Positions 10,625-26,556 of a stretch of DNA of 64,000 bases are shown one piece after another (position 1 is the stretch's first letter; each line of letters starts with the position of its first letter). The position numbers and the translations under genes were made by a program. The notes beneath the pieces are model-generated. The model saw only the letters and a program-made list of their open reading frames with translations. It was not told the origin of the DNA and ran no database searches. Source of the stretch: a virus (taxonomy: Duplodnaviria; Heunggongvirae; Uroviricota; Caudoviricetes); IMG/VR virus record IMGVR_UViG_3300028610_001217; one strand, given 5' to 3'.

Positions 10625-12133
10625 CTAAAATACATAATTGGGACTTTCTCTTGCAAAATCTTCATTTCCACTAAGACTAACATTGGCATAACTCCTCTTG
10701 CTGCCCAACCTCACTAAGGCTTGGGACATAGCGTCAACTTGGTCATCGTGAGCACCATTAGGAAATAGCGCACACTCTTCAACAAAATCATGTGCCCACT
10801 GAGCGTTATTAGGAAGAAAAACATTACCAGCTTCAATATCCCAACTGATAGCTTGCGCTCTAGCTTCCTTACCGCCCTTGGGCTCTACAGGAATAATTCC
10901 CGGTATTTCATTTTTTAAGACCTGTATGACAGCAATGCCATTAGCCTTATCTTCAATCAATTTCCCCCTAGCTTTCGGCCACTTCCTAGTCATCATTCTG
11001 ATGGCTGCAATTGTAGCCGGGAAGTCCATTTGGTCTCGAACTTGATCTAATAAATACTTATTAGCGCCCTTACGTCCCCAAATTTGCCCTACAACATAAG
11101 AACTGGTTTTTAAATCTTTAAAAGAACAATCCCAAGACTGGATTATTTCCTCCATAGGCATAGGCGGTTCATCAAAGAATTTCCACCATGCTCGTTTTAG
11201 GATGCCACCTTCGGACGGTGATGGTCTTTGTTGGTAGAGTGACGCCCACATTCTAGCGCCATACGTGCCCTTGTAAGAACCCTTAATAGCTTGTAATCTT
11301 TCTAGTGGCCACCTTTCTTCATGAAGAGCTTCACCAACTTTCCTATGAGCCTCCTTTTGCTCTGCCATAGCAGGATAGGCAATACAATCCCACTGGTCTC
11401 CGCCGACTTTTTGTGCCTCAAGTAACCTACCTGGTAGGTCATCTTCGTTCCACCTTGTTACGCACAAGAGGACGCCACCACCTGGGCTTAACCTGGTATA
11501 AGCTGTAGATAAATACCATTCCCACGTTTTCTCGCGGTAGGTTGTACTGTCAGCTTGTTCCGCATCTTTTATGGGGTCATCTAAAATAAGAATATCAGCG
11601 CCCATCCCAGTAATACCGCCACCGACGCCGGTACTACGATACATACCATGGTGTCCCACTATTTCAAAAATATCGGTAGTCCGCAAATAACCCCTAGCGC
11701 CACTGTGATTAATTCTCCGCATTTTAGTGCCAGCTAACATAGTGTCAGGAAATAGGTTTTTGTATTCTTCGGAATCTATAATGCGTTGAACGTTCCGGTT
11801 AATACCGGCGGCAAAATCAGCCCCATAGCTTGTAGCTATAATCTGGAGGTCCGGATTTAGCCCGAACGCCAAAGCAGGCAAACGCCTAGAAACCAGCTCC
11901 GTTTTTCCGTGCCGTGGCGGCATAAATATCATCAATCGCGGCGAGCGCTTAGCCTCCACATCTTTTAAAAACTGATCTAAGCGTTCAGCTATCTCCTCGT
12001 GAACCCAACCGGCTTGGTAATCCGGCTTGGTGTAATGAGTAAAATGAAGTAGCTTACGGCTAGCTCTTGCTCTTTTTACTTCCGTTAGCCCGACTGCTAT
12101 TTCTTTTTGCACCCTGCTTGTTGCCGTTGACAT
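10625..12133 (-). CDS. terL: terminase large subunit
   Basis: 502 aa. N-terminal ATPase region with MPPRHGKTE (P-loop-like) and LILDD (Walker B-like). C-terminal nuclease-like Asp cluster (FPNGAHDDQVDAMSQAL). Gene order TerS, TerL, portal. Confidence 0.85.
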   Translation of the reverse strand: MSTATSRVQKEIAVGLTEVKRARASRKLLHFTHYTKPDYQAGWVHEEIAERLDQFLKDVEAKRSPRLMIFMPPRHGKTELVSRRLPALAFGLNPDLQIIATSYGADFAAGINRNVQRIIDSEEYKNLFPDTMLAGTKMRRINHSGARGYLRTTDIFEIVGHHGMYRSTGVGGGITGMGADILILDDPIKDAEQADSTTYREKTWEWYLSTAYTRLSPGGGVLLCVTRWNEDDLPGRLLEAQKVGGDQWDCIAYPAMAEQKEAHRKVGEALHEERWPLERLQAIKGSYKGTYGARMWASLYQQRPSPSEGGILKRAWWKFFDEPPMPMEEIIQSWDCSFKDLKTSSYVVGQIWGRKGANKYLLDQVRDQMDFPATIAAIRMMTRKWPKARGKLIEDKANGIAVIQVLKNEIPGIIPVEPKGGKEARAQAISWDIEAGNVFLPNNAQWAHDFVEECALFPNGAHDDQVDAMSQALVRLGSKRSYANVSLSGNEDFARESPNYVF

Positions 12134-12671
12134 TTTCCACCGCCTGCGCCTCGGCCACCAACCTCTGGAGTTCCTGATCTAACTCCTCGTCTGTGAAATC
12201 ATCATATTTATGATGTAAGTGATCGATCGTTCCAGTATGTTCAACTTTGTCTTTAAGCATCCCGAAGATCCGGGTGAGTAATTCCAGCGCCGGTTTTTTA
12301 TCATAGAGCTTAATTTTCATTCTGCCGGTGGGTGAGATATTTATCTCCTGGACACAAGATGCCAACTCTTCGCTAAGTGTTTTTGAGTCTTTAACTTTAA
12401 CACCATTATTATCCCAAGAAACAAAGTCGTTCATGCTAGTGAAGGCTATCTTGCCTAACTCAATAAGAACCTTTTCCTCGCTAACCTCGCCTTTGCCAAT
12501 TCTCTTTTTGATGGCCTCAGCAAGTGCGGTTTGAACTACTGGAGTGGCAATCATTTCATAATAACCATCAATGTAGCCAGCTTCATCGGCTGCACGCTTA
12601 ATATCAAAGTGGTCTAAGTATTCATTAATAAATATTTGTTGTTGTGGTGTTAGAACTTTCTTTTCATTCAT
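12060..12671 (-). CDS. terS: terminase small subunit
   Basis: 203 aa. LTPQQQIFINEYL...IKRAADEAGYI resembles the Terminase_2 (P27-like) small-subunit N-terminus. Overlaps the terL start. Confidence 0.6.
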   Translation of the reverse strand: MNEKKVLTPQQQIFINEYLDHFDIKRAADEAGYIDGYYEMIATPVVQTALAEAIKKRIGKGEVSEEKVLIELGKIAFTSMNDFVSWDNNGVKVKDSKTLSEELASCVQEINISPTGRMKIKLYDKKPALELLTRIFGMLKDKVEHTGTIDHLHHKYDDFTDEELDQELQRLVAEAQAVENVNGNKQGAKRNSSRANGSKKSKS

Positions 12672-13354
12672 CTTGTTGTCCTTAATGCCTCGAAAGCCTC
12701 AGCCGACTTAAACCCGCATTCACTTCCCCTGACTATGGCAAGTGCTTCTAGATTATTTAAGCTTCTTGGGTGCGGCTCTTCCCTAACTTCTGTATCATAA
12801 AGGGCCATTGCAGTTAATTTACTATTTATAGTTCCATGAACATCAATATAATGATTAGGGCGAAAGTCACCGTGCGAGCCATAAGCCCACTCGGTACTAG
12901 AGGGAACCTCATATTGGTATATCTCCCTCACGTTGCAAGAGCATGGCCTTGTGGCCGTTATAGTTGCGTAAGCTACCATCCTATGATCAACGTTCAAATC
13001 CTTCGAAGAATGAGTAAATATAATTTCCGGTTGAATGGCCTCAATTACTGCCTCTATTCTCTTTACTATATCTAGCAGAGGAATTGAGTCAAATTTGTTG
13101 TCCGGTAGAACATTGTGTTCTTCTGAGTCTAAAATAGGGAAAGCCCCTAATAACCTACAAACATTACCTTGTGCTTGTTTTAGCATTTCTTCTTCTTCGG
13201 GGTCAATTGCCCCCCTAGCCGCAAGCCCATTCCCGAGCCAAAATATATGAACCCGCTCCCCTTCCATCGTAAATCGTTTAATAGTAGCCCCGCACCCTAA
13301 CACCTCATCATCAGGGTGAGCCGCTATTACTAGAATATCTTGCATTATACTCAT
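12668..13354 (-). CDS. PIG-L/LmbE family N-acetylsugar deacetylase
   Basis: VIAAHPDDEVLGCG motif near the N-terminus; 228 aa. Confidence 0.75.
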   Translation of the reverse strand: MSIMQDILVIAAHPDDEVLGCGATIKRFTMEGERVHIFWLGNGLAARGAIDPEEEEMLKQAQGNVCRLLGAFPILDSEEHNVLPDNKFDSIPLLDIVKRIEAVIEAIQPEIIFTHSSKDLNVDHRMVAYATITATRPCSCNVREIYQYEVPSSTEWAYGSHGDFRPNHYIDVHGTINSKLTAMALYDTEVREEPHPRSLNNLEALAIVRGSECGFKSAEAFEALRTTR

Positions 13355-13355
13355 G

Positions 13356-14018
13356 TTATTTTCCCCCGTCGGACAATAAAAATTCCGCCCATAATAAATC
13401 CAATTCTGTATCTATGTCAACCGCTTTTTCTTCTGGTAAATAATATGGAGATGTCCTCATTTTAATCCAATCATCTACTTCTAAGAACTTATCTGTATTA
13501 CACATAATTATGCTGCCGTCGTGTTTACCTAAGAACCCTAAGTCTTGCCTCTTAGTTTTGTAGCCTATCGGACTATCAGGCATTAGGTAATTTCCTTCTG
13601 CCCTCAACGCCCACTGCGGGGGATATTCATAGTCAGTTACTGACATTAAGCAATCTAAGTTCAAGTGTTCGAAGTCTAAGTGTGCATATTGAATCATTGC
13701 TGAATCCCTAAACGGGCTAGTAGGTGAAAGCATTGCAAAACTATCTGGCCTCATTTGCTCAACGATATCTGTACAAACTTCAAATATTGTTGAAAGTGGT
13801 TTAGCGTAATCAGGTGGCCTATTATGTAGGATACATCCAAATTCTGCAGCTAATGATAAAATTTCACTACTATCTGAGGAAACGACTACCTTTTCGAAAA
13901 CCTCGCTATCTATGGCCGCTTCAATGGTCCACTGCACGAGCGGCTTACCGCCTAAAAGCCTCATGTTTTTACCGGGTACGCGCTCGCTCGTACCTTTAGC
14001 TGGAATCAGAGCAATCAA
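13356..14018 (-). CDS. nonulosonic acid cytidylyltransferase (CMP-NeuAc/CMP-Pse synthetase family, PseF-like)
   Basis: ALIPAKGTSERVPGKN N-terminal motif typical of CMP-sialic acid/CMP-Kdo synthetases. The apparent start codon is TTG. Confidence 0.7.
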   Translation of the reverse strand: MIALIPAKGTSERVPGKNMRLLGGKPLVQWTIEAAIDSEVFEKVVVSSDSSEILSLAAEFGCILHNRPPDYAKPLSTIFEVCTDIVEQMRPDSFAMLSPTSPFRDSAMIQYAHLDFEHLNLDCLMSVTDYEYPPQWALRAEGNYLMPDSPIGYKTKRQDLGFLGKHDGSIIMCNTDKFLEVDDWIKMRTSPYYLPEEKAVDIDTELDLLWAEFLLSDGGK

Positions 14019-14188
14019 TTCCTACTCCCCATGACTGTTGTATAACAACGATCGCAAACTTGAACCATTGGGCCGTCTTTATAAATTGAACCTCCAAATA
14101 CTTCTTCAGCTTCTGCATCACGTTCTTCTTCGCCCCAGGCAGCTTCATGCGTTTCCTTACATATAAAGCAAGTAAATGTTCGTATCAT
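14015..14188 (-). CDS. small CxxC...CxxC zinc-ribbon protein (55 aa)
   Basis: Hand translation: MIRTFTCFICKETHEAAWGEEERDAEAEEVFGGSIYKDGPMVQVCDRCYTTVMGSRN. ATGA overlap with the upstream wbqC-like stop. Confidence 0.35.
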   Translation of the reverse strand: MIRTFTCFICKETHEAAWGEEERDAEAEEVFGGSIYKDGPMVQVCDRCYTTVMGSRN

Positions 14189-14886
14189 GTAACCCCCCTA
14201 AGTATTCTTAAACTATTTGGGCCTTCATTCATCAAAAGGTCGATGATGCACATTCCCTCTTCGAAATTTGGATATACTTGTTCATAAACCGGATGATTAT
14301 AACCTTGAAATACCGTTTCAACTCCGATGGCCTTAAGCCCTTCAATATCCGTATAGGGTTCAGCACCAGCCCCGACTAAGAAGATTTCAACACCTGGTAT
14401 CTTGTCGCACATATCAACAACCCGTTCGCAACCAACACCAAAAATACTCAATGAATAAGCTTGCAATATTCTGGTGGTTATCCCTAGTTGAGTTAGCACC
14501 CAACGGAGCATAGTTTGATTTATTCTGGAGAGATGACCCCACGGAGTTGCGTAAATGGTTTCAAGTTGCGGGTAATATAAATCAAAGAACTTCGCTTTGT
14601 TGTAAGCAAGTTCTATCGCCTTTAAATGCTTACGTCTCCAGTCCGTGGAATTATCTATTTCTATGTCTATGAACTGTTTATCTCGGTATCCCTTGCTAAG
14701 AACTGGAACCGTAAGCCATTGCCAGCCGTGTTTGGTGCGAATCTTGTTGCGGTTATTGAAGCTTCTAGGGGCATATTGAACTGTATCCAATATTACAAAG
14801 ACGTCGGCTTGAGCAATTTTATTTATTGAACCCAACCAACCAGACAGATAAAGTGGTTGCTGTGATACCAATATCACACGAAACAC
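14185..14886 (-). CDS. WbqC-like family protein
   Basis: N-terminus LVSQQPLYLSGWLGSINKIAQADVFVILDTVQYAPRSFNNRNKI...WLTVP matches the WbqC family pattern. Confidence 0.6.
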   Translation of the reverse strand: MFRVILVSQQPLYLSGWLGSINKIAQADVFVILDTVQYAPRSFNNRNKIRTKHGWQWLTVPVLSKGYRDKQFIDIEIDNSTDWRRKHLKAIELAYNKAKFFDLYYPQLETIYATPWGHLSRINQTMLRWVLTQLGITTRILQAYSLSIFGVGCERVVDMCDKIPGVEIFLVGAGAEPYTDIEGLKAIGVETVFQGYNHPVYEQVYPNFEEGMCIIDLLMNEGPNSLRILRGVT

Positions 14887-15039
14887 CCCGGCTCAGTGCT
14901 CATCCAGTGGAGTAATCGCTTAGTGCAATCAGGGCAAACATGATTAAAGTTAACGGTTTCTTCAACACTAAAGATGCTGAATAAACCATCCCCCGGTTGA
15001 GCAGGTCTTTCCATATCTGCTCCGCATTTAGCGCAACTA

Positions 15040-15801
15040 TTAGAGCTCAGCAAAACTAATCGAACCTCCCCATGGTAGACGCTCGACTTTAAGGTTGTTG
15101 ATATCTAGTTCTTCCAAAACAGCCCGAGTTTCCCCCGGCCATGCCCTTAAGTTAAGTTCATCGAAAGCTATAATTGCACCTTTAGGCATTCTGGGAACTA
15201 AATGTTGGAGAGCCGTTTTTGTGGGGGCATATATATCGAAGTCGCAGAATAAAGTTGAGATTATTAAGTGCTGATTATTCTTGATATACTCTGGGATAGT
15301 TTCGCAAGCATCCCCTTTAACGATTTCAACTTTTGGCAGGTGCCCAATTGTGCGATTCTTGTCATATAGTTTAACCGCCTGCTCTATCGTTGCCTTACTA
15401 TCTACCTTGAAGCCGTCTTCTTTGGCCTCAACAGATTTACCTTCAGCTATGTCTTGAACTGATAATTGCGTAATACCATCAAAAGTATCGAACCCAATAA
15501 TTTGACGTTGCATATTTACCGGCTCCATGATAGCAGAAAGATGCGCCCACCAAAGTAATCCACCACCGAATAATACCCCGCACTCAACAATTGAACCTTG
15601 AACATTTAAGGCTCGCTTGAATATTTCGTACTTAGTTAAGTAACGTGTTAAGTCTTGCCTTGCCGTAAATAGTGGAAAGTTTTGCATTTTCTCATAACCA
15701 GAATATTCGCAATCGGTGATAAATTGCTCCATTTCCCCCGAATATGATTGTTCTTCTGTTGACCTAGTTGATTCTGAGAATCTGTACGCTTTCTCCGTCA
15801 T
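15040..15801 (-). CDS. TylF/MycF-family SAM-dependent O-methyltransferase
   Basis: GSIVECGVLFGGG motif and macrocin-O-methyltransferase-like size and arrangement. Confidence 0.65.
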   Translation of the reverse strand: MTEKAYRFSESTRSTEEQSYSGEMEQFITDCEYSGYEKMQNFPLFTARQDLTRYLTKYEIFKRALNVQGSIVECGVLFGGGLLWWAHLSAIMEPVNMQRQIIGFDTFDGITQLSVQDIAEGKSVEAKEDGFKVDSKATIEQAVKLYDKNRTIGHLPKVEIVKGDACETIPEYIKNNQHLIISTLFCDFDIYAPTKTALQHLVPRMPKGAIIAFDELNLRAWPGETRAVLEELDINNLKVERLPWGGSISFAEL

Positions 15802-16625
15802 TAACCCCCCAATAGCCCTAATTGCTTCAAGTAATAGTCTGTGCCGTTACCTCTAACTTTTCGGTAAGCAGCTGCGGTCATTTGACTTCTCACCCTTGAG
15901 TTTTTTAGTCTATTAATATTCCCAACTATCCGCTCAACCGGGATTTCCCTAATCCACCCCAAGCTTACTGCTGCCCCCGCTTTATTAAGCTTCATACAAT
16001 TAACAGTTTGTTCGGGTGAATCAGTAACCAGTAAGCTGGGTACACCTAATAAAGCCAACTCCCACGCCGTAATCCCCCCCGCGCTAATCGCGATATCTGA
16101 TGACTGCATATTAGTAATTATATCTGCGCCGCCAGGATCAACTCTTTGTAACCCTAATTCATCCAAAGCTGAGTCAACGGTATCAGAAAAACTATCATCA
16201 ACCCTAACAAATACACGTTTAATTTGCGGCCTAACCCTGAATGGCCTCTTTCTCGCTTTCCAAATGTCCTCGCGGAACATTGGGTCTGCATTATCGTCAA
16301 TAGCGACTACCTTCAGTTCATGACCCATTAACTTTGCGCAGTAATCAAGCCCTAGCTTGTAACTGTCAACAACGATATACTCTGCATGAAAACCCTTAGC
16401 TATCCCAACTGTTTGACCCACGTCATGATCAGCGTCTATCAAAACACAAAACATGCCCGCATCATTTATAAGTTCGCTGATGAACTCAGTATTCTGACCC
16501 ATTATAAATACGGGGGTAGCATTCTTAGCTCTAATTGCCTGAGCTAAAGCAAAGCACCGCATAGCATGACCTTGGCCGAACTTTTGGCCGTCGTCGGCGT
16601 CGCACCGAATTGCGATGTTACTCAT
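15801..16625 (-). CDS. PseG-like UDP-sugar hydrolase (UDP-2,4-diacetamido-2,4,6-trideoxy-L-altropyranose hydrolase family)
   Basis: IAIRCDADDGQKFGQGHAMRCFALAQAI matches the PseG/SpsG N-terminal signature. Confidence 0.65.
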   Translation of the reverse strand: MSNIAIRCDADDGQKFGQGHAMRCFALAQAIRAKNATPVFIMGQNTEFISELINDAGMFCVLIDADHDVGQTVGIAKGFHAEYIVVDSYKLGLDYCAKLMGHELKVVAIDDNADPMFREDIWKARKRPFRVRPQIKRVFVRVDDSFSDTVDSALDELGLQRVDPGGADIITNMQSSDIAISAGGITAWELALLGVPSLLVTDSPEQTVNCMKLNKAGAAVSLGWIREIPVERIVGNINRLKNSRVRSQMTAAAYRKVRGNGTDYYLKQLGLLGG

Positions 16626-17260
16626 GGCTTACCCTTATAGGCGTAGCAACAAAAATCAGCATCATCAGGATCTATGTAGTCCGTTCTTAAGACAACATAT
16701 GGTGTCATAGTATAAAGATAGCCTAGTATTGAATGGGGTGACAACCAAGTAACCCCAGGTATTTTTTCAGTTCTCATCATACCTGACCAAACTGAAGTAA
16801 ACGCTACTGCAAACTTAGATAGCCTAGCCATATGACTGATTAACTCTAAAACCTTTTTGCCGCCCTCTTCGTTGTTGGGTAACTTATAGAAAATGCCTTG
16901 AGCTAACACCACGTCATATTGCTTTTGGCCGCCGGTTAACAAATCTACTGGCCAATACGTCTCTAGGTCGGCATGAATAAGGTTAAGGTCATGGTTTTCC
17001 TTATTACCAACTTGAATTGCCCTCAGAGAAATATCTATGCCGGTGTAGTTGCTGACCGTCATACCCCTAGTTGAAAGATAACGCCCCAGCCCACCATAAT
17101 TACAGCCCACGTCTAGAACGCTCTTACCATTCAGATCGCAAACTTCACTCAATGCCTTATACCGGGCATCTAACAAGCGCTGATTACCGGCATCCACTGC
17201 TTTAGGCGTTGCGCCATGCTTCATTGCAAGCTTATCATAGAACTTAGCTATGTCAGTCAT
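16622..17260 (-). CDS. class I SAM-dependent methyltransferase
   Basis: VLDVGCNYGGLGRYL motif I. Confidence 0.6.
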   Translation of the reverse strand: MTDIAKFYDKLAMKHGATPKAVDAGNQRLLDARYKALSEVCDLNGKSVLDVGCNYGGLGRYLSTRGMTVSNYTGIDISLRAIQVGNKENHDLNLIHADLETYWPVDLLTGGQKQYDVVLAQGIFYKLPNNEEGGKKVLELISHMARLSKFAVAFTSVWSGMMRTEKIPGVTWLSPHSILGYLYTMTPYVVLRTDYIDPDDADFCCYAYKGKP

Positions 17261-17444
17261 TTTGTGGCATCAATTCAATTAGCACCGTTCTTATTAACTC
17301 AAATGCTTCAACCCTGTTAAATCCTGCGTTCATATATTCTACGAACATTTCGTGTAACTGAACTGCGGCTATCTTCAATTCCGTTATTCCAAATTCTTCT
17401 TCATTTTCAGGCAATGCATTCCCCCAATACTCTGACGACTTCAT
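17253..17444 (-). CDS. hypothetical small protein
   Basis: 63-aa ORF inside the sugar island. Confidence 0.3.
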   Translation of the reverse strand: MKSSEYWGNALPENEEEFGITELKIAAVQLHEMFVEYMNAGFNRVEAFELIRTVLIELMPQND

Positions 17445-18402
17445 TCTGCTCTTCTTTGGTTATTGTAACGTAATACGGCAGCGAAATTATATGCCTAAAT
17501 GCCTCGTCAACTTCTGGCAAATCCTTAGGCCAATCAACCCACAGTCGATAATCAGTTACAGGTGCCATTGCCATTACGCCGCGCTCTTGCATGGCTGCAA
17601 CAACGTCAGTCGTTAGGTGATGTTTCTCCAGCCTTACCGTGTACCTATAAGGTAATTTGGCATTACAAGCTTGATAGTTCTCTAGCAGTGGATCATAATA
17701 GTCGGCCACCTTACGTTTTAAGTCCATCTCCCAAATAAGCTTTGACATCTTACTAAGGGCAATCGCAGCACCTACATCGTTGAAAAGGTCATTTTGCTTT
17801 AACGATGGTGGCTTATTACCGTAAGTCCTGAGGTCTTTGACTTTATCGATTAGCTCCTCGCTGCCACTTACAATGCCCCCGCCAGTTGAACCTATAAATT
17901 TAGTGGGATAAAAGCTTGTGATAGCCAAATCAGCAGTTTGCTCGACTAAGGTATGACACATATCCTCAATAACTGGAATGCCTAGATTCCTCAGCGGCTT
18001 AATCTTGGCCTCATGCCCAAACATGTGAACCGCTATAATGGCACGAGTTTTAGGCGTTACTTTAGCCGTTACCGAGTACGGATCAAGGCAAAGTGTATCG
18101 CCATCTATATCGGCTAACACCGGAACAGCCCCGATCGTGAGGATTGCATTGTGCAACGCAACACAATTGTAAGCTGATATAATTACTTCGTCACCCGCTA
18201 GTACCCCTAGCGCCTTTAAACCCAACCTGAGCGCTGTCAGGCCGCTGGAGACAGTAGCAGAAGCTGTTGCCTTAACCGATTTAGCCCATACATATTCAAG
18301 TGTTTCGCACGCAGGCCCAGAAGCCAAGAAACCGCTGGCTATAACCTCTTGAGCGGCCAACATTTCCGCCTCACCGAAAAGCGGTTTATTGTGGGGTATC
18401 AT
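17407..18402 (-). CDS. DegT/DnrJ/EryC1/StrS-family PLP-dependent sugar aminotransferase
   Basis: 331 aa; N-terminus MIPHNKPLFGEAE...ASGFLASGP is typical of the family. Second aminotransferase in the island. Confidence 0.75.
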   Translation of the reverse strand: MIPHNKPLFGEAEMLAAQEVIASGFLASGPACETLEYVWAKSVKATASATVSSGLTALRLGLKALGVLAGDEVIISAYNCVALHNAILTIGAVPVLADIDGDTLCLDPYSVTAKVTPKTRAIIAVHMFGHEAKIKPLRNLGIPVIEDMCHTLVEQTADLAITSFYPTKFIGSTGGGIVSGSEELIDKVKDLRTYGNKPPSLKQNDLFNDVGAAIALSKMSKLIWEMDLKRKVADYYDPLLENYQACNAKLPYRYTVRLEKHHLTTDVVAAMQERGVMAMAPVTDYRLWVDWPKDLPEVDEAFRHIISLPYYVTITKEEQNEVVRVLGECIA

Positions 18403-18649
18403 TAGCCGCTTTCGCTAACTCTTTGATAAATAGTTCAGCAAAGCCTTCACTCTCACAACCATCTTCACAACTGCAAGCGATACACTGGATGCAATAATTT
18501 TTGTCAGCAATTTCTTTTGCGACCTTCCTAATTAAACCTTCTTCGTAAAGAGCAATATGATAATTAAGAGATCCAACAATTTTACTCAAAGTCACCCACC
18601 TTGATCTTGCCGACCGGAATACCTTCATACCACCAAACGATTCCTTCAA
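18386..18649 (-). CDS. hypothetical Cys-rich protein
   Basis: CIQCIACSCEDGCESEG cluster; 87 aa. Confidence 0.3.
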   Translation of the reverse strand: MKESFGGMKVFRSARSRWVTLSKIVGSLNYHIALYEEGLIRKVAKEIADKNYCIQCIACSCEDGCESEGFAELFIKELAKAANDTPQ

Positions 18650-19154
18650 TTCTGACCCTAGGGTTATAGATACTCCTGCAATCGTTTAATAATGTATGTA
18701 AATCGTCGAAATCTGTAGATGCGACGTACAACTCTAAGCCCTCACGCATGCGCGGATCCGAAAACAGAAATATAAATGGTTTATCTAACGTAAGCGGATT
18801 ACCCTGAATTTTGGGACCAATTGCTTCGCCCGACCATTCACCATCCGATGTATTGGTAAAGTTTGTATTATTTACTGCTACCCACATGTGTTGATCGGCG
18901 GGATCAAGTGATTCGGCATCAGTATACCAAGGATCAACTATCCCCTCTGCCTTTTGCTCCTTCCTGGGATTGCGACGTTTCTCTAATCTGACGCAACGTC
19001 CTGCCCGAATAGTCACGCGGACATTAGTGCCATCTAGTTTCTCAGTAGCCACGGCACCTTCCGGCAAGTCAACAAGTCTTTTATCGATTACATAATGCTT
19101 GCCTCGTTTGCCGTCACCATAATCTCTGTCAAAAATTGTTGGAATTTTCCTCAT
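18582..19154 (-). CDS. nucleotidyltransferase of the RNA/DNA ligase superfamily (KxDG motif)
   Basis: TEKLDGTNVRV (motif I lysine), later EGIVWW and KIKV (motif IV/V-like). Small (190 aa). Confidence 0.4.
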   Translation of the reverse strand: MRKIPTIFDRDYGDGKRGKHYVIDKRLVDLPEGAVATEKLDGTNVRVTIRAGRCVRLEKRRNPRKEQKAEGIVDPWYTDAESLDPADQHMWVAVNNTNFTNTSDGEWSGEAIGPKIQGNPLTLDKPFIFLFSDPRMREGLELYVASTDFDDLHTLLNDCRSIYNPRVRIEGIVWWYEGIPVGKIKVGDFE

Positions 19155-19164
19155 TTAACCCCCA

Positions 19165-19599
19165 TTAAAATATTGCCATTCTTATGTGGCCTTCAGGCTC
19201 ATGTTTACCCTCCGGGTAGAAACCGCATTTACGGAAAGCCCCTATACTGCGCTCGTTTTCCTCCCGAATGACCGCAACAACCTTAATGATGCGCCACTTT
19301 TCAAAAACTTCCCTAACCCCCATATTAATTGCGGTTATTGCTACGCCGCCACCCCTGTGATCTTCGCTGATATATATGGAGACAACAGCTTCCTCATCCA
19401 CCCTATCAAACCGGATGAAACCAACATTAGGCTCAATTATATAATACAAAACCTCGTCACTTGCTATGGCAACTGGGTAATATATTAAATGTTGCTCCCA
19501 GCTTACCGCCTTTTGCGTAGTTGTTACGCTTATCATATCGGGCATGTTCCGCCAATTAAACACCGTCCGCATATCAGTCTTCTTGGCGAGGCGAATCAA
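19165..19599 (-). CDS. GNAT N-acetyltransferase (PseH-like)
   Basis: HRGGGVAITAI acetyl-CoA-binding motif A; 144 aa; sits in the Pse island. Confidence 0.5.
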   Translation of the reverse strand: MIRLAKKTDMRTVFNWRNMPDMISVTTTQKAVSWEQHLIYYPVAIASDEVLYYIIEPNVGFIRFDRVDEEAVVSIYISEDHRGGGVAITAINMGVREVFEKWRIIKVVAVIREENERSIGAFRKCGFYPEGKHEPEGHIRMAIF

Positions 19600-19799
19600 T
19601 GTGTAATCCTTATTTCATCAGCAAAATTCAATAATTCTTCTGCTATTAACCTAATATCAGCTTCATTAAATACGCCAAAACCACCTTCTATATAAACAAC
19701 CACTTTTTTCTCACTCGATATATACGAAACTAAGTCCCCTTTTTTCATTTCTCCAGATAATATATATTCTCTTGCATCTCCAGTTACTACTTCCGCCAT
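19596..19799 (-). CDS. SAF-domain protein (detached C-terminal domain of NeuB-type synthase)
   Basis: 67 aa; VVTGDAREYILSGEMKKGDLVS resembles the SAF/antifreeze-like C-terminal domain. Its ATG overlaps the TGA stop of the upstream NeuB barrel (ATGA). Confidence 0.45.
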   Translation of the reverse strand: MAEVVTGDAREYILSGEMKKGDLVSYISSEKKVVVYIEGGFGVFNEADIRLIAEELLNFADEIRITH

Positions 19800-20524
19800 C
19801 AGCCTATTGTCGCCTTAAGCTGTTTAAGCTCAGTAGTATCTAAGGACCACCAATGATCTGGCCCATCAGCTTCATGTTCAAGCGTAAAATGGACTTCAAT
19901 AGCTACTGCCCCTAATTCAGTGGCACGTATGCAAACATCTACTCCTTGTTTTCCCGCTACATGATTGCTGTACCCGCAAGTATATCCCATGTTTTGTATT
20001 GCTCGTATTTTCCACAATTTGGGGTAAATGCAAGGATATTGTGATTCGCAATGAAGAATTAAATCTTCTGGATTAGCTATTTCGTGAAGGTTGTTTAAAT
20101 CTGCTACATGACCCATTGATATAACAATCGGTAGATTTTGACGATGCATTTCTTTTATCATTTCAGTATTGAATATCATATCTGATGCAACTTTTAAGGC
20201 GCATACACCTAAGTCAACCATCTCCTTGACACCTCGGGCGCTAACAGTGGTAACAAAAAACGGAATACCTACTAATTCACAATGTTCTTTTATTTCTTGC
20301 CATTGCCCTAATGAAAATTCATGACGCTTAAATAAATCAAATAAACTTTCACCATTATGCATACCGCTACTATCAAAATCTTCTGGGGGTGCATGTTGAA
20401 ATTTAACGTAATTAGCCCCAGCGCTAACCGCTGCATTGATAGTTTCTTTGGCTAATTCAATTAACCCATTATGATTTAGGCCAATTTCGGCTATAAGTAT
20501 AGGCGCAGTCCCGACTTTATGCAT
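19799..20524 (-). CDS. NeuB-family nonulosonic acid synthase, TIM-barrel part (PseI/NeuB-like)
   Basis: [12 protein letters not shown]...YVKFQ ... GYSNHV ... IEVHFTLE canonical NeuB motifs. Lacks the fused SAF domain, which is encoded by the next ORF. Confidence 0.75.
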
Positions 20525-21254
20525 TAATAATTTTCATCCCCTCCAACAAAGCTTGTCTAGCATTTTTTCTAATATCTCTCTCCCAAAGCCTAATTACCTT
20601 ATAGCCTTTATCTTTCATATAAGCATCACGCTTTCTATCTGATTCCCTTCCATCAGGATAGTTATGCCAATAGTCCCCGTCGCATTCTATTACTAGGTTG
20701 CAACAAGGGATGAAGATATCTGGGAAATATGGACTAATACGTTTGCCAATTTGGTGCGTTATATTGAGAAGCCCCAATTCTTTACAAATAGCTATTTCGA
20801 TTGAAGATGGATTGGCGGTTCGCGCCAACCAAGCATTTTCTAAATAATCTCTTCGCTCATGAATATCCCTAGCAGCCCATACTTTTTTGCCAGCAATACT
20901 CATTTTATTTTTAGCGGCATTAGTATGTTTATGCCCCTTAAAGCAGCCATCCCGACCCTTGTTGGCCTTACTTATATTTTGTCGATGTTCTTGAGTAAAA
21001 GTTTTTTGCCTACCTGCTTGCTTAAGTTTTTCTATAGTTTCTTCTGAATACACCCCTTTCCGCCCTTTGTTCCAAGGAGTATTCCCAGTCATTCGTTCCC
21101 TAATCTTTTCACAATGTTCTTTAGAAAACTTTTTCCCTTTATGCGCAACACTCATACGATTCTTAGTTTCTTCAGAATGCTTTTTACCTTTGCTCGACTC
21201 ACTTATCTTTTTCTTAGTTTCTTCAGGCATTGGTCTACCTTTTGACCAACTCAC
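20517..21254 (-). CDS. homing endonuclease-like protein: NUMOD3 repeats plus Vsr/DUF559-like nuclease domain
   Basis: [29 protein letters not shown] repeats (NUMOD3-like). C-terminal [22 protein letters not shown]...[20 protein letters not shown] (DUF559/Vsr-like). Confidence 0.7.
20660..20731. repeat. 72-nt exact repeat, copy 1 (shared with 22481..22552)
   Basis: agttatgccaatagtccccgtcgcattctattactaggttgcaacaagggatgaagatatctgggaaatatg is identical at both loci. It encodes the [23 protein letters not shown] core of the two endonuclease genes. Confidence 0.9.
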
Positions 21255-21276
21255 AATTAAACTTCCTCAATTTCAA

Positions 21277-22365
21277 TCATGAAGTCACCGAGTCATAAGT
21301 CAATTGCTCATTATTTTTAGCATCACGACTAGCCCTTTTACCAATGAATAAATAATCGAGGTAAGGTGAAAGACCATTGCCCGGCCTCTTCGCAGCCAGC
21401 ATTTCTCTTGTGATAACCTCACCGGCTTTAACGTCCCGGTTAAAGACCAAACTTACAAACCATAATTCACGCTGCGAAACATCTGCCATAGAGGGAAACA
21501 AACCATAATCACCTAACATCTCTAGCCGGGGGAACCTTGGACTAAATTCGTAGGAAGCACTTTGTAGCCAATAAACATATTCTTTGAACTTCTTAGCCTC
21601 AATAGCTTTAGTTTGATGGTGGCCCCCAGGATCGTCGTTGTTGAGTTTAATCCTTTTCTCTATCAAAACGGCACCTAAACTTACCGCTAAGCCGTCCGGA
21701 TCCCAATCTGCCCAATCAGCACTGTAACCTACCGCTATGTCGTATCTATCTTTGAGGTAAGGAATAGTCTTTAAGTTGAGTTCGGACGCATTAGGTGAGT
21801 GTGACTCATAAACAAATATTACATTACGTTGAAACCACTGCCTGCCCTTTGTTTCAATAATTTGCTCAACTAGCGCAACAACTTCGGAGCTATTAACTGC
21901 CCCAATATCGAATTGTATCGGCTTGCCTGTTTCCAATACTGCTTCAATCAGGTATTTATTGGTAGTGTCCCAGCCGCCTATTTTGTAGCAAGGGACTTCA
22001 AGCTCTTCAGCTAAAGGAATGTAGTCTATTGTTCCAACCGAAACATAAAAAATAATACCCCGCTCTTTGCAGTAAGCAGCTACCTTGCGCCAGTCTTCGT
22101 CAGGCACCCAATAAGACAATATGACCTGAACCAGAGATTTATCTTCATACTGAAGTGTAAAGTCGGCTATCAGTTCTTCCGGGTTTGACATAATGAACTT
22201 AATAGCATCACAAGAAGCATCTACTGCTGCATCGATCAACTTCTTTGCTATTTCCAGGCTACCTTTTGATGTCGATCCTGCCTCAGCTACGATAAATAAG
22301 GGTGCGCCGCTACCGATTTCCCTATTACCAATTTTCAAGCTATTTCCCCCTTGTTGATCGCACAC
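21277..22365 (-). CDS. divergent NeuB-family synthase with fused SAF domain
   Basis: LFIVAEAGSTSKGSLEIAKKLIDAAVDASCDAIKF N-terminal region. C-terminal VITREMLAAKRPGNGLSP SAF-like domain. Diverges from canonical NeuB (KFIMSNP instead of KFQ). Confidence 0.55.
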   Translation of the reverse strand: MCDQQGGNSLKIGNREIGSGAPLFIVAEAGSTSKGSLEIAKKLIDAAVDASCDAIKFIMSNPEELIADFTLQYEDKSLVQVILSYWVPDEDWRKVAAYCKERGIIFYVSVGTIDYIPLAEELEVPCYKIGGWDTTNKYLIEAVLETGKPIQFDIGAVNSSEVVALVEQIIETKGRQWFQRNVIFVYESHSPNASELNLKTIPYLKDRYDIAVGYSADWADWDPDGLAVSLGAVLIEKRIKLNNDDPGGHHQTKAIEAKKFKEYVYWLQSASYEFSPRFPRLEMLGDYGLFPSMADVSQRELWFVSLVFNRDVKAGEVITREMLAAKRPGNGLSPYLDYLFIGKRASRDAKNNEQLTYDSVTS

Positions 22366-22988
22366 AATAAAGCTTGTTGCGCATCCTTCCTAATATCTCG
22401 CTCCCAAATTCTAATAACTTTATACCCATGTGCCCCCATAAAATTATCTCTTTGAGCGTCGTTTTCTTGTCTCCCCGGTAAGTTATGCCAATAGTCCCCG
22501 TCGCATTCTATTACTAGGTTGCAACAAGGGATGAAGATATCTGGGAAATATGAGCCAATTTGTTTATCTGCTTCATAAGTAATGTTGAGGTCATTTAGAA
22601 CTTTATGGATAGCTGTTTCTATAGATGATGGGCTTGATATTTGTGCTACCTTAAATGCTTTTTGAGTATGCTCTCTTTTTTGCCCTATTGATAAGCTACC
22701 CCACCATTCGTTACCACCTTTGTGCAGCAAATCTAACCGTTCTTGCTTGTCTTCTGGTGAAGCGTTAGCCCAAAACTTTTTAGCACCATTGTTAAAAGCT
22801 GGCAAAAGCCTTATTACTCGTTCTTCTTTTGAACAACCCCCCCAATACCCTTTTAAGCCAATAGAAATATTCTGTTTCTGCTTATTAGAAAGCTTTTTAC
22901 CCTTATGTGCTTCCTTCATTTTTGCTTTACTTTCTTCAGTATGCTTCTTGCCCTTAAATCCAGAAACCCTTCTCCCCTTAACTTGCAT
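22335..22988 (-). CDS. homing endonuclease-like protein, paralog of 20517..21254
   Basis: GKKHTEESKAKMKEAHKGKKLSNKQKQNI NUMOD3-like repeats. [24 protein letters not shown]...GYKVIRIWERDI Vsr/DUF559-like domain. Confidence 0.7.
   Translation of the reverse strand: MQVKGRRVSGFKGKKHTEESKAKMKEAHKGKKLSNKQKQNISIGLKGYWGGCSKEERVIRLLPAFNNGAKKFWANASPEDKQERLDLLHKGGNEWWGSLSIGQKREHTQKAFKVAQISSPSSIETAIHKVLNDLNITYEADKQIGSYFPDIFIPCCNLVIECDGDYWHNLPGRQENDAQRDNFMGAHGYKVIRIWERDIRKDAQQALLCAINKGEIA
22481..22552. repeat. 72-nt exact repeat, copy 2
   Basis: Identical to 20660..20731. Confidence 0.9.
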
Positions 22989-24051
22989 AATCCACTATAA
23001 CCTCAATTATATAATCAACTTGTTTGTTTGTTAGGCCAGGGTATATTGGGATACTTAATACTTCTTTGCATACTTTTTCGGAAATTAAGCAACTCCCTGG
23101 GTTATGATAATAAGGCTCCAAGGTCAATGCTCTATAATGTACCTGGCTACCTATCCCTTTATTTTTTAAGTGTTGCCTTAATTTGTTTCTTTTTTTACAC
23201 CTAATAACGTAAAGGTGATGAGAACTTTTACATCCCCCGAGCTGCGTCAATGGCGTTACCCCCGTAACTTGTGAGAAAGCATCATTGTATCTATTAGCTA
23301 TCTTACTCCTTTTATCTATGAAGTGGTCAAGCCTTTTTAATTGATTAATTCCCAAGGCGCAACTGATATCTGAAAGCCGATAATTGAAGCCCAGGGTTTC
23401 CATACCGCGCTCACTTCTACCGTGATTACGAAATTGCTTAGCTCGCTCATAAAGTGCTTCAGCATCAGAATGCTCAAAAGAAACCATACCCCCTTCGCCG
23501 GTAGTTATCGACTTAACTGGGTGAAATGAGAAGCAATTTATATGGCCCCAAAAAGCATGAGGTATTTTTAGGTAGTCGGCCCCTAGTGAATGGCAAGCAT
23601 CGTCAATTAACCATAGGTTATGCTTATCAGCCAACTGCCTTAGCCCTAAGTAGTTGCAAGGTTGCCCGGCAAAGTCGACGGCGATAACAGCTTTTGTCTT
23701 CGCAGTTATCTTGCGCTCGATATCCTCAAGATCTATTAGAAGCGTATCTGCCGCAACATCAGCAAAAACTGGTACTGCTCCCATGTAAGCCACACAATTA
23801 GCACTAGCCACAAACGTAATAGCTGGTGTGATAACTTCATCCCCCACCCCAATCTCAATAGCTGCCATTGCACAATGTAAGGCTGCCGTCCCCGAACTTA
23901 CAGCTAATGTATATTCACTGCCAATTTTAGCAGCAAAGGCTTTTTCGAATTCTTCAACCTTTGGGCCAGTGGTGAGAAAATCTGACCTTAGAGTTTCCGC
24001 TACCGCCTTAATGTCATCCTGGTCAATATTTTGATGATTATATGGTATCAA
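22978..24051 (-). CDS. pseC: PseC-type PLP-dependent aminotransferase (UDP-4-amino-4,6-dideoxy-N-acetyl-beta-L-altrosamine transaminase family)
   Basis: MIPYNHQNIDQDDIKAVAETLRSDFLTTGPKVEEFE is a typical PseC/DegT N-terminus; 357 aa. Confidence 0.8.
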   Translation of the reverse strand: MIPYNHQNIDQDDIKAVAETLRSDFLTTGPKVEEFEKAFAAKIGSEYTLAVSSGTAALHCAMAAIEIGVGDEVITPAITFVASANCVAYMGAVPVFADVAADTLLIDLEDIERKITAKTKAVIAVDFAGQPCNYLGLRQLADKHNLWLIDDACHSLGADYLKIPHAFWGHINCFSFHPVKSITTGEGGMVSFEHSDAEALYERAKQFRNHGRSERGMETLGFNYRLSDISCALGINQLKRLDHFIDKRSKIANRYNDAFSQVTGVTPLTQLGGCKSSHHLYVIRCKKRNKLRQHLKNKGIGSQVHYRALTLEPYYHNPGSCLISEKVCKEVLSIPIYPGLTNKQVDYIIEVIVDYAS

Positions 24052-24175
24052 CCTACTGCACCTTTTTTATGAAAGCCTATTGTGAAAAACCCTAGATCTA
24101 TGAACAAAGCTTTATCTGCTGGAATAATTTCTACCCCTATTCTAAAAATTCCCCAATGCTGATCACTATAAGCCA

Positions 24176-25141
24176 TCATTTAATCAAGCTCCCTATTTGG
24201 TCGCCTGTTAAAAATAACTCATTCTTGTCACTTGCATAAGACCCTTTGAACGGCTTACCCTCTATGCTACCCCGTTCAAACCAGGTATGTGATGGCAGCA
24301 CCACGTATCTATTTTCCTGACTGATCGCTGTTTCTCCTTCAGCTATCAAAACTTCGTGAAGCTTTTCCCCTGGCCTAATTCCTGAAACCTCAATATTACA
24401 ATCCGGCCCAATAGTCTGAGCTAATTGCATAATGTTGCAACTAGGAATCTTGGGAACAAATATTTCGCCGCCGACCATAGTATCTAGCGCTTCAAGTACA
24501 AAGTCGGTAGCTTGGTCGAGTGTTATCCAGAACCGGGTCATCTTAACATCCGTTATTGTGAGCAAACCCTTTTTCTTTTGTTCCTTAAACTTGGGGACAA
24601 CGCTACCCCGGCTCCCCACCACATTACCGTATCGCACAACCGATATCCTAGTTGATGTTCCGCTAGCATAAGCGTTACCCTGAATGAACAATTTTTCAGC
24701 CATTAGCTTGGACGCCCCATATGCATTTATAGGGTTTACAGCTTTATCAGTAGATAGCGCCACTAACTTCTTAACTCTGCACGTTATGGCCGCTTCTAGG
24801 ACGTTCTGAGAGCCTATTATATTAGTGTTCACACCCTCATAAGGGTTATATTCAATTGCCGGCACTTGCTTCAACGCTGCCGCATGAATAACAATATCGA
24901 TATCATGAAGCGCTATCCTTAAGCGCCCTGGATCCCGGACATCACCTAAGAAGTAACGTAACCGGCTGTCGGGATCAATTGAGGTATCCGGGAAGCCAGT
25001 TTGACGCATTTGTTCTTGCTTCAGTTCATCCCGGCTGTAGATAACAACCTTTTTAGCGCGTTGCTTTAATGCTTTCTTTATAAACGCCTTACCGAATGAG
25101 CCTGTGCCTCCTGTGATTAATACGTTAAGTCCTTCCAGCAC
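24176..25141 (-). CDS. pseB: PseB-type UDP-GlcNAc 4,6-dehydratase/5-epimerase (Polysacc_synt_2, FlaA1-like)
   Basis: LNVLITGGTGSFGKAFIKKAL Rossmann motif; 321 aa; short-chain dehydratase architecture. Confidence 0.8.
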   Translation of the reverse strand: MLEGLNVLITGGTGSFGKAFIKKALKQRAKKVVIYSRDELKQEQMRQTGFPDTSIDPDSRLRYFLGDVRDPGRLRIALHDIDIVIHAAALKQVPAIEYNPYEGVNTNIIGSQNVLEAAITCRVKKLVALSTDKAVNPINAYGASKLMAEKLFIQGNAYASGTSTRISVVRYGNVVGSRGSVVPKFKEQKKKGLLTITDVKMTRFWITLDQATDFVLEALDTMVGGEIFVPKIPSCNIMQLAQTIGPDCNIEVSGIRPGEKLHEVLIAEGETAISQENRYVVLPSHTWFERGSIEGKPFKGSYASDKNELFLTGDQIGSLIK

Positions 25142-25691: not shown

Positions 25692-25905
25692 TCCTGTCTC
25701 TCTTTCTGCCTACCTATCTGCCTAGCCGTTAATCAAACAGTCTTGCACTATTTTAACCTAAAAAGAAAAAGCCCAACGGTCTGACGCCCGTCGAGCCTTT
25801 TCTAAATTCGTAACCGGATCCTTAAAGGGTTATCAACCCCCTTGGACCTCAAACATCGGAGCCCGTAAAAGCTAAAAGCAAGAGCACGACCTCGCTATCC
25901 GATAG

Positions 25906-25977
25906 AAGCTACGGCTGGATTCAAACCAGCGTGGAACGGTTTTGCAAACCGTTGCCTAATCACTCGGCCACGTAGCC
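25906..25977 (-). tRNA. tRNA-Cys(GCA)
   Basis: Hand-folded cloverleaf: anticodon stem ACGGT/ACCGT, loop TTGCAAA, T-arm GCTGG-TTTGAAT-CCAGC, U73 discriminator. Confidence 0.65.
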
Positions 25978-25985
25978 ATAAACAG

Positions 25986-26058
25986 CAGCGCTAGGGGGAA
26001 TCGAACCCGCCTTGACAAGATTGAAAATCTTGGATCCTAGCCGTTAGATGATAGCGCC
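25986..26058 (-). tRNA. tRNA-Glu(TTC)
   Basis: Anticodon arm CAAGA-TTTTCAA-TCTTG; D-arm TCATCTAACGGCTAGGA resembles bacterial tRNA-Glu; TTCGATT T-loop. Confidence 0.6.
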
Positions 26059-26175
26059 ATAAAAGGGATAGTAGGTGCACCCTAGAAAGCTATTCCAAGT
26101 ATGCCCTCAGCCAGCAACGCAACGGTTTCCGTGGTCTTGTGTCGTTCTGAACTAGTTGCCGAACCTTTACCCTAG

Positions 26176-26466: not shown

Positions 26467-26479
26467 TTGTTAAATCTAG

Positions 26480-26552: not shown

Positions 26553-26556
26553 TCAG

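Follow-up and report, generated by a model that had tools for sequence, protein, structure and literature searches.

Nonulosonic acids such as pseudaminic acid (Pse) are bacterial surface sugars that are tied to motility, virulence and phage recognition. The activated form, cytidine monophosphate (CMP)-Pse, has the L-glycero-L-manno configuration. Virus-encoded glycosylation is known from giant viruses and from some mycobacteriophages. In Megavirinae, pathways for rare amino sugars of bacterial type glycosylate the fibrils of the virion (PMC10117803, PMC9614988), and in Acinetobacter baumannii the prophage-encoded enzymes EpaA and EpaB convert Pse to 8-epi-Pse (PMC12053666). Here, a gene island is analyzed that lies in a stretch of 64,000 nucleotides (the window) of the tailed-phage record IMGVR_UViG_3300028610_001217, and for which an original prediction, made from the sequence, had proposed a complete CMP-Pse pathway with extensive tailoring enzymes. 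A description of such a phage pathway was not found in the searchable literature. The analysis suggests that the island in all likelihood encodes a pathway to a tailored, Pse-type CMP-nonulosonate. With less confidence, we favor a functional phage module that converts uridine diphosphate (UDP)-N-acetylglucosamine (GlcNAc) to a CMP-activated Pse-type sugar and re-decorates it, most likely for virion proteins, the acceptor being the weakest part of this reading.

The island extends at 12668-25141 exactly from the PIG-L gene to the PseB gene, with all genes on the minus strand and mostly abutting or overlapping by a few bases, just as the original prediction had placed it (Table 1). Of its open reading frames (ORFs), 13 code for at least 144 aa, and about eight small ones (43-87 aa) are interspersed among the enzymes of the conserved sugar set, which number about twelve. 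Genes were assigned with profile and structure tools and their chemistry was deduced from the families; curated cut-off denotes the NCBIfam equivalog threshold. Profile searches, the check that the original prediction had proposed, recovered every family it had named with significant scores, including the two on which it hinged, namely NeuB and the cytidylyltransferase (TIGR03584). For PseB, the first committed enzyme, TIGR03589 gives 411.9 bits (cut-off 407.75) with FnlA as next family at 236, the Polysacc_synt_2 match has an E-value of 3e-98 and the motif GGTGSFGK is present. PseC reaches 384.2 bits on TIGR03588 (E 6e-115), which is under the cut-off of 423.5 and about 120 bits over the next family, and carries the catalytic lysine motif SFHPVK. 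The GNAT protein in the PseH position gives a weak match to TIGR03585 (35.9 bits, E 7e-9; cut-off 93.1) and matches PseH in the PDB (4xpk, E 6e-4), SpeG-type GNATs scoring better; in a related phage locus, L015, this position is taken by a hexapeptide acyltransferase.

The PseG-like protein scores 89 bits on TIGR03590 (E 3e-25; cut-off 153.6), can be aligned from end to end with annotated bacterial PseG proteins and keeps the invariant histidine of the N-terminal GxGHxMRC motif (GQGHAMRC). Its AlphaFold2 model (pLDDT 91.6) has a GT-B fold, and the nearest solved structures found with Foldseek are MurG, as top match, and GT1 transferases. This fold match fits a hydrolase and a transferase alike, and possibly the protein has genuine transferase activity. 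The PseF-like protein gives 136 bits on TIGR03584 (E 1e-39; cut-off 205.7), the next family reaching 49 bits, and matches NeuA/CMP-NeuAc synthetases (CMP-N-acetylneuraminic acid synthetases) in the PDB with an E-value of 3e-20.

NeuB and PseI are metal-dependent nonulosonate synthases forming domain-swapped dimers with SAF caps. The island encodes two proteins of this family, NeuB-A and NeuB-B, which share 27% identity over 137 residues. NeuB-B keeps all canonical motifs (NHNG, HC..YP, S-N-H, E-V-H and GPDH), ends ahead of the SAF domain and has the SAF-less structure 6ncs as its best PDB match; it probably takes the role of PseI. NeuB-A keeps the SAF domain with the RPG arginine as well as the conserved glutamate, lysines, asparagine and serine, and carries GSTSKG for GxNHNG, YES-HS for LHC..YP, GYSADW for GxSDH, EKR for EKH and GHHQ for GPDH. 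At the two metal-histidine positions it has D/W and R, while NeuB-B retains both histidines (SNH, EVH). The lost residues correspond to His215 and His236 of Neisseria meningitidis NeuB, the ligands of its metal ion. On the PseI model TIGR03586 (cut-off 340) NeuB-B reaches 116 bits and NeuB-A 120 bits, and both score higher on the NeuB/NnaB model; they belong to the NeuB superfamily, with Pfam scores above threshold, but not to the PseI equivalog. The original prediction of two NeuB-family synthases was correct regarding the family, but these are not two ordinary synthases, as one lacks the SAF domain and the other the metal-ligand histidines.

A motif census was made of 159 sequences, consisting of the best 150 cluster representatives at 50% identity from a profile search of 1.84 billion sequences together with references. 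Both metal-position histidines are missing in 41 of the 159, nearly all of which have arginine at the second position and threonine for the asparagine of NHNG. NeuB-A represents a real and conserved, uncharacterized subfamily. An A-type and a canonical NeuB were found together in every locus examined, i.e., in the window, in L121, L017, L122, L015, L102-L109, L016 and the bacterial L025. The two genes overlap with nothing between them in L015 and L017, while in the window they are separated by the homing endonuclease HEG2. The canonical NeuB is SAF-less in four lineages (window, L121, L017 and L122), in each of which NeuB-A keeps its SAF domain; the NeuB-B orthologues of 82-88-kb phages retain theirs. 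Two readings fit these observations: NeuB-A might donate its SAF domain to the SAF-less NeuB-B in a heterodimer, or it might be a second, metal-independent enzyme condensing phosphoenolpyruvate (PEP), in which arginine replaces the metal. A recent endonuclease-driven duplication of NeuB was rejected in view of the low identity and the conservation of both types across lineages. The 67-aa ORF following NeuB-B was also rejected as a split-off SAF domain, since L121 does not have it and the hhalign probability of a match to the NeuB-A profile is 0.2%.

Next to the core enzymes, profile matches were obtained for a second aminotransferase (DegT2), two methyltransferases, WbqC and PIG-L, which bears out the earlier claim that many tailoring enzymes stand beside a nonulosonic-acid pathway. 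The closest structural match of WbqC is BshC (4wbd), with a score of 14.5 and 217 of 233 residues aligned, followed by class I LysRS (13.5), by GluRS, GlnRS and CysRS (8-9) and by MshC (7.3). WbqC is thereby predicted to have the class I aminoacyl-tRNA synthetase (aaRS)-like Rossmann (HUP) fold of BshC/MshC-type ligases. It is only 12% identical to BshC and forms a Pfam family of its own, PF08889. No biochemical data on WbqC were found in the searchable literature, including that on the N-acetylglycyl-Qui4N (4-amino-4,6-dideoxyglucose) cluster of Escherichia coli O121. BshC and MshC act right after the PIG-L-family deacetylases BshB and MshB and add cysteine to the freed amine. The PIG-L protein of the island has BshB1 as best NCBIfam match and matches BshB (6p2t) and TT1542 in the PDB, and such BshB-like PIG-L proteins travel together with WbqC in phages and in many bacterial Pse-type clusters. 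Because of the fold of WbqC and this gene neighborhood, we propose that PIG-L and WbqC might swap an N-acetyl group for an aminoacyl or other acyl group, which the GNAT protein and the methyltransferases could cap.

Alternatively, WbqC may acylate an amine introduced by DegT2, as the DegT2 gene lies immediately upstream of WbqC in most loci (L015, L016, L051 and L102-L109 except L106). DegT2 is 26% identical to PseC and keeps the lysine. Of the two methyltransferases, the TylF-type protein matches CalS11 in the PDB over its full length (E 7e-35), and homologues of the class I enzyme adjoin WbqC in the bacterial loci L025 and L041.

The island is not restricted to a single assembly. The window belongs to a metagenomic contig of 102,020 bp (ENA ERZ27251120 k141_2661871), which puts the phage at 102 kb or more, and the island proteins recur in independent assemblies, namely on this ENA contig and on Logan contigs; in a 93-kb JGI contig the flanking genes are identical and their spacing across the island is exactly 57,318 bp as well. 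Moreover, at least eight IMG/VR contigs (10-88 kb, five of them 82-88 kb) carry the same island in the same place. L102-L109 and L015 share PseB, PseC, NeuB-A, NeuB-B, an acyltransferase, DegT2, WbqC, a TylF-type methyltransferase, a second methyltransferase, PseF and PIG-L in a nearly constant order, with portals that are 57-61% identical where present, and the island ends at terminase and portal wherever the contig extends far enough. L106 has a rearranged order and no TylF match; L017, L121 and L122 represent further island lineages. The dN/dS values of PseC, NeuB-A, NeuB-B and GNAT range from 0.03 to 0.14 (NeuB-A 0.07, window versus L121), a sign of purifying selection on these genes.

In a search of IMG/VR with the large terminase subunit (TerL), none of the 12 loci obtained (27-54% TerL identity) had island genes beside TerL; phages related by TerL alone thus lack the island. 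GenBank phages gave no megablast match to the island, and a NeuB homologue is present in only three of 50,697 GenBank phage records, one of which is evidently bacterial. A nearly identical gene set is found in L025, a 761-kb alphaproteobacterial (Tepidamorphaceae) sequence, with NeuB-B, GNAT, a methyltransferase, WbqC, PIG-L, PseF, an EKR-type NeuB-A, PseB and PseC, and WbqC and PIG-L also lie beside Pse genes in Acidobacteriota, Calothrix and Chlorobium. The gene set of L025 suggests that the module was taken from a widespread type of bacterial glycan cluster and was then inherited within a phage family. In another locus, L016 (JGI 3300001371, 86-kb contig, 1-21044), a full Pse set stands together with genes for a formyltransferase, DegT, WbqC, an A-type NeuB and PIG-L, after which come two genes for sulfotransferases and five for glycosyltransferases. 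This locus is probably of cellular origin and serves to build a glycan polymer with the same tailored sugar; the cognate transferase might be recognized there.

The phage origin claimed by the original prediction is right, as the small terminase subunit TerS, TerL and a Mu-type portal directly follow the island, the PIG-L gene overlapping the start of TerS by 4 nt. Downstream of the portal are a MuF protein, a protease, a capsid protein, a tail terminator and a tape-measure protein. All genes of the window are on the minus strand and the GC content is even (0.39-0.52). A scan of 11.5-27.5 kb detected a single strong terminator-like hairpin, which lies upstream of the island; no site resembling a terminator separates the island from the head genes. 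By its gene order the island would be part of the packaging and structural transcription unit, and it is probably expressed late, since it always lies directly upstream of the packaging and head genes. With about 100 kb, 23 tRNA genes and no integrase seen, the window phage looks like a large, lytic tailed phage.

Taken together, the following route is proposed. PseB and PseC would convert UDP-GlcNAc to UDP-4-amino-4,6-dideoxy-L-AltNAc (AltNAc, N-acetylaltrosamine), which the GNAT protein would N-acylate. The minimal PseG-like protein would free the hexose, NeuB-B with its canonical active site would condense it with PEP, and NeuB-A would serve in one of its two possible roles, as SAF-donating partner or as metal-independent enzyme. 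The PseF-like enzyme would form the CMP-sugar, a 5,7-diamino-nonulosonic acid of the pseudaminic type. For tailoring, the BshB-like PIG-L might strip an N-acetyl group, WbqC might ligate an amino acid or carboxylic acid to the sugar amine freed by PIG-L or introduced by DegT2, and the CalS11-like and class I methyltransferases might add methyl groups. The most likely use would be the decoration of virion proteins by a yet-unrecognized transferase, a virion-related role being favored by the fusion of island and late operon in every lineage. A bolder proposal is that these phages make an undescribed sugar, i.e., a Pse-type sugar N-aminoacylated by WbqC after deacetylation by PIG-L and methylated, with the help of a new kind of NeuB synthase, either the NeuB-A/NeuB-B heterodimer or a metal-independent NeuB, and place it on their particles or, less likely, on their DNA. 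This proposal is tentative and rather unlikely to hold.

Several observations weigh against the proposed pathway and its assignment to the virion. PseB is the only pathway enzyme that passes its curated cut-off, and five of the six core steps score under theirs. The PseG-like protein is shortened by two internal deletions, the GGSDP loop being lost in one of them, its sequence gave nothing significant in a PDB search, and no PseG-like gene is present in the 82-88-kb relatives that keep the island, which implies that hydrolysis is done otherwise there or that the pathway is unlike the textbook one. What is supported is a nonulosonic-acid pathway with a Pse-specific start (PseB, PseC) and a CMP-nonulosonate synthetase at its end; the complete six-step CMP-Pse pathway of the original prediction is plausible, but is weakened by the sub-threshold scores of PseC, PseF, PseG, PseH and PseI and by the relatives without PseG. 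Regarding tailoring, no oxidoreductase is present that would give DegT2 a keto substrate; to our knowledge, BshC activity has not been reconstituted in vitro, and likeness of fold gives a mechanistic class only. The late expression is read from gene order, and nothing in the data points directly to virion proteins as acceptor. No dedicated glycosyltransferase was recognized in the island, as the original prediction had stated, and its suggestion to look elsewhere for a Maf or glycosyltransferase gene was also answered negatively: no Maf, sialyltransferase-like or other glycosyltransferase was found with Pfam in about 78 kb of called genes (the window, about 9.7 kb past its low end and 4.6 kb past its high end). 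This absence also speaks for a serious, if rather unlikely, rival, in which the same pathway hands its CMP-sugar to host transferases (flagellin Maf-type, pilin, S-layer, lipopolysaccharide or capsule) and alters the surface of the infected cell, e.g., as a barrier to superinfection or to the adsorption of progeny to debris. The clear descent of the module from bacterial surface-glycan clusters is in line with such a function, and the prophage enzymes altering the capsular Pse of A. baumannii set a precedent (PMC12053666). However, the phage looks lytic, the fusion to the late packaging operon in every lineage would be late for surface remodeling, and a pathway of at least ten genes would be costly if the host already makes the sugar.

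The product might also not be Pse at all. The product of PseB and PseC might be diverted, e.g., to an N-aminoacylated 4-amino-6-deoxyhexose, with the NeuB proteins making another 2-keto-3-deoxy acid, possibly a side-chain acid that is aminated by DegT2 and ligated by WbqC. The preference of both NeuB proteins for the NeuB/NnaB model over the PseI model, both far under cut-off, the relatives without PseG, the tight coupling of DegT2 and WbqC in many loci and the remodeled active site of NeuB-A are all compatible with this. We consider it improbable, as the PseF-like protein is a clear homologue of CMP-nonulosonate synthetases and PseB/PseC recur with a canonical NeuB, together with a CMP-transferase in most full-length loci and PseG in several bacterial ones, which is a Pse signature. 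A long shot is that phage DNA is the acceptor, with a UDP-amino-sugar intermediate or the nonulosonate serving as a base hypermodification. The window phage encodes a thymidine-hypermodification set at 58.7-62.3 kb, comprising a 5-hydroxymethyldeoxyuridine (5-hmdU) DNA kinase, a PF18724 protein, a GATase and a phosphatase, and its DNA probably carries modified thymidines; moreover, a TET-associated glycosyltransferase (TAGT, PF20691) and ParB_N lie directly upstream of PseB in L015, L102 and L105, and a dCMP (deoxycytidine monophosphate) deaminase precedes PseB in L017. On the other hand, neither the window phage nor L106-L109 have the TAGT gene, the hypermodification set of the window phage is about 35 kb off in the early/middle region, and the linkage to packaging genes does not suit a replication-time function. 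Known phage DNA glycosyltransferases use UDP-sugars, which also counts against this reading. A preprint on virus-encoded DNA glycosyltransferases makes no mention of sialic acid, NeuB, pseudaminic acid or nucleotide sugars. TAGT was also considered as the missing transferase and rejected, being present only in L015, L102 and L105. Finally, the bacterial ancestry of the genes, and nothing else, would fit a misassembly that joined bacterial DNA to a phage contig, or a decaying cargo without function. The data refute this, given the same junctions in independent assemblies, the recurrence of island and position in at least eight contigs, a GC content equal to that of the rest of the phage, the low dN/dS values and the presence of phage homing endonucleases inside the island.

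Table 1. Features of the island and of the phage regions discussed in the text, ordered by window position
Feature	Position	Strand	Match or remark
Mu-type portal	9125-10612	-	profile match
TerL	10625-12133	-	profile match
Terminase small subunit TerS	12060-12671	-	Terminase_2, E 2e-22; opens packaging/structural module
PIG-L/LmbE-family N-deacetylase, BshB-like, last island gene	12668-13354	-	PIG-L, E 5e-24
CMP-nonulosonate synthetase (PseF role)	13356-14018	-	TIGR03584
Small CxxC...CxxC ORF, 57 aa	14015-14188	-	motif
WbqC, predicted BshC/class I aaRS-like (HUP-fold) ligase, 233 aa	14185-14886	-	E 2e-61
Small CxxC...CxxC ORF, 46-59 aa	14874-15053	-	motif
Nucleotide-sugar O-methyltransferase, TylF/CalS11 type, 253 aa	15040-15801	-	TylF
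Minimal PseG-like GT-B protein, 274 aa: UDP-sugar hydrolase, possibly transferase	15801-16625	-	TIGR03590
Class I S-adenosylmethionine-dependent methyltransferase	16622-17260	-	Methyltransf_23/12/25
Small ORF, 63 aa	17253-17444	-	phrog_11511, weak
DegT2, second sugar aminotransferase (generic)	17407-18402	-	DegT_DnrJ_EryC1, E 2e-53
Small Cys-rich ORF, 67-87 aa	18386-18649	-	inserted with ligase-like gene; absent from L121
RNA-ligase-like protein	18582-19154	-	phrog_14301 (phage RNA-ligase family) full length; KLDG motif
GNAT N-acyltransferase (PseH role)	19165-19599	-	Acetyltransf_3/Acetyltransf_1
Small ORF, 67 aa, not a detached SAF	19596-19799	-	absent from L121
NeuB-B, NeuB without SAF, 241 aa, canonical active site	19799-20524	-	NeuB, E 4e-41
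Homing endonuclease HEG2, between NeuB-A and NeuB-B	20517-21254	-	NUMOD3 x4 + DUF559/MTES_1575
NeuB-A, NeuB + SAF, variant subfamily, 362 aa	21277-22365	-	Pfam NeuB + SAF
Homing endonuclease HEG1, free-standing, NUMOD3 + Vsr/DUF559	22335-22988	-	Pfam
PseC-type pyridoxal phosphate-dependent aminotransferase	22978-24051	-	TIGR03588
Small ORF, 43 aa	24048-24179	-	called as gene in two assemblies; no family match
PseB, inverting UDP-GlcNAc 4,6-dehydratase, first committed step	24176-25141	-	TIGR03589
Terminator-like 16-bp hairpin	25764-25803	-	between tRNA array and island
302-aa protein	58689-59597	-	hypermodification set
Low-molecular-weight phosphatase	59575-60006	-	hypermodification set
PF18724 amino-acid:DNA transferase	60006-61064	-	hypermodification set
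GATase_6	61030-61677	-	hypermodification set
5-hmdU DNA kinase	61688-62305	-	hypermodification set

Next to the enzymes, the island holds two homing endonucleases and about eight small ORFs that had not been recognized before. HEG1 and HEG2 are paralogous (45% identical) and are free-standing homing endonucleases, with NUMOD3 repeats and a nuclease domain, an intergenic position and presence/absence polymorphism. In L121 (JGI 3300009788), a 79%-identical relative with nucleotide identities of 73-83%, the order is PseC overlapping NeuB-A, HEG2, NeuB-B, GNAT and DegT2, which indicates that HEG1, the 67-aa ORF and the RNA-ligase-like gene with its small neighbor are insertions in the window phage. 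HEG1 is evidently a recent one, as it is absent from L121, where HEG2 is present. The ligase-like nucleotidyltransferase that had been placed among the tailoring enzymes does not belong to the pathway: the gene is absent from L121, where GNAT abuts DegT2, and from all other related islands, and it matches a phage RNA-ligase family, so a role as sugar-pathway ligase was rejected. The CxxC...CxxC ORFs, which are zinc-ribbon-like, stand on both sides of WbqC, and no homologue of either was found in related islands. No group I intron or riboswitch was found in the island, Rfam matches being tRNAs and a tmRNA-like match elsewhere. Outside the island, an intein (Intein_splicing) is embedded in the 1150-aa MuF head-morphogenesis protein (5680-9132); its DUF559/Vsr-type nuclease domain shares about 30% identity with the island homing endonucleases (tblastn, 6655-6924).

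Further observations concern the surroundings of the island in this phage and its relatives. A dense tRNA array at 25905-31805, with a further part at 55264-55335, is interrupted by an HNH endonuclease (27527-27874) and by an ORF for a 234-aa membrane-anchored protein, and Rfam gives a match to tmRNA (transfer-messenger RNA) of 82 nt and 54.6 bits at 32217-32298. A set resembling RNA-repair genes, with a second RNA ligase (236 aa), RtcB, a HAD/PNKP-like phosphatase and a DprA-like protein, together with Fic, is located at 52350-53069 of the window and, outside of it, at 1495-4259 of L021. Together with the RNA-ligase-like insertion of the island this set suggests a tRNA-repair counter-defense. 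A Tad4-family protein (a putative anti-defense sponge), a Band_7/SPFH protein and a Prok-JAB deubiquitinase-like protein are encoded at 49796-50470, 51053-51982 and 30059-30496, respectively. In L015 (IMG/VR 3300037424, an 82-kb phage) the genes at 988-2607, directly upstream of PseB, encode ParB_N, PF20691 and an Acb2/Tad1-hairpin protein, and two sigma-70-like factors lie between PseC and NeuB-A. In L020, a near-identical sibling contig that continues past the low end of the window, a 738-aa protein (18448-20664) with a weak BNR-repeat match is encoded after the tape-measure gene. BNR repeats are typical of sialidases, and this protein may act in the tail on glycans that contain nonulosonates, by binding or by cleavage.

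As a summary, a nonulosonate pathway that is selected for and inherited in lytic-type phages is rare, i.e., it is a known type of pathway in an unusual carrier. If the sugar is placed on virions, this would be the first nonulosonate-glycosylated bacteriophage virion and would extend virus-encoded glycosylation to a new class of sugars, which would matter for how phages and hosts recognize each other and for how visible phages are to the immune system. Moreover, two leads for enzymology emerge, namely a conserved NeuB subfamily with arginine and other residues for both metal ligands, always found alongside a canonical NeuB, and WbqC, a widespread protein of O-antigen clusters without assigned function that may be a BshC-like ligase paired with a PIG-L deacetylase.

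Compared to known systems, the island is most similar to the CMP-Pse pathway of Campylobacter and Helicobacter, with PseB above its cut-off and PseC close to it, the other four steps in the same families, the catalytic-histidine motif of PseG kept and a CMP-activated nonulosonate as predicted end product. It differs in being phage-borne, in its sub-threshold equivalents of PseH, PseG, PseI and PseF, in a SAF-less PseI equivalent that is paired with a histidine-less NeuB paralogue, and in adding DegT2, WbqC, PIG-L and two methyltransferases while lacking a Maf-type transferase. Both NeuB proteins are NeuB-family TIM barrels like N. meningitidis NeuB and Campylobacter jejuni PseI, NeuB-B sharing the canonical motifs and NeuB-A the PEP-binding lysines, the asparagine, serine and glutamate and the SAF arginine. 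NeuB-B differs from them by lacking SAF, as does 6ncs, and NeuB-A by D/W and R for the metal histidines, by T for N in NHNG and by H for D in GPDH. The full-length match to CalS11, a thymidine diphosphate (TDP)-rhamnose 3'-O-methyltransferase, would imply O-methylation at the nucleotide-sugar stage, whereas the substrate in the island would be a UDP- or CMP-linked amino sugar and not TDP-rhamnose.

The tailoring steps are reminiscent of bacillithiol (BshB-BshC) and mycothiol (MshB-MshC-MshD) synthesis, in which a PIG-L deacetylase frees a sugar amine and a class I aaRS-like enzyme attaches an amino acid to it, which a GNAT can cap. This parallel would be one of working alike and not of membership: WbqC has half the size of BshC (233 versus 540 aa) at low identity, and it would act on an amino sugar linked to a nucleotide or to CMP instead of on GlcNAc-malate or GlcNAc-inositol. 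Megavirinae likewise encode multi-step, bacterial-type nucleotide-sugar pathways, the sugars of which end on the virion. However, they are eukaryotic viruses with their own glycosyltransferases and UDP-hexosamine derivatives, and pseudaminic acid is unmentioned in PMC10117803 and PMC9614988, whereas the island belongs to a tailed phage, is predicted to make a nine-carbon acid and comes with no transferase found. EpaA and EpaB share with it that phage-borne enzymes act on pseudaminic acid chemistry. Yet these are two tailoring enzymes of a temperate element that act on the capsule Pse of the host itself, whereas the island encodes a whole pathway in a large, apparently lytic phage.

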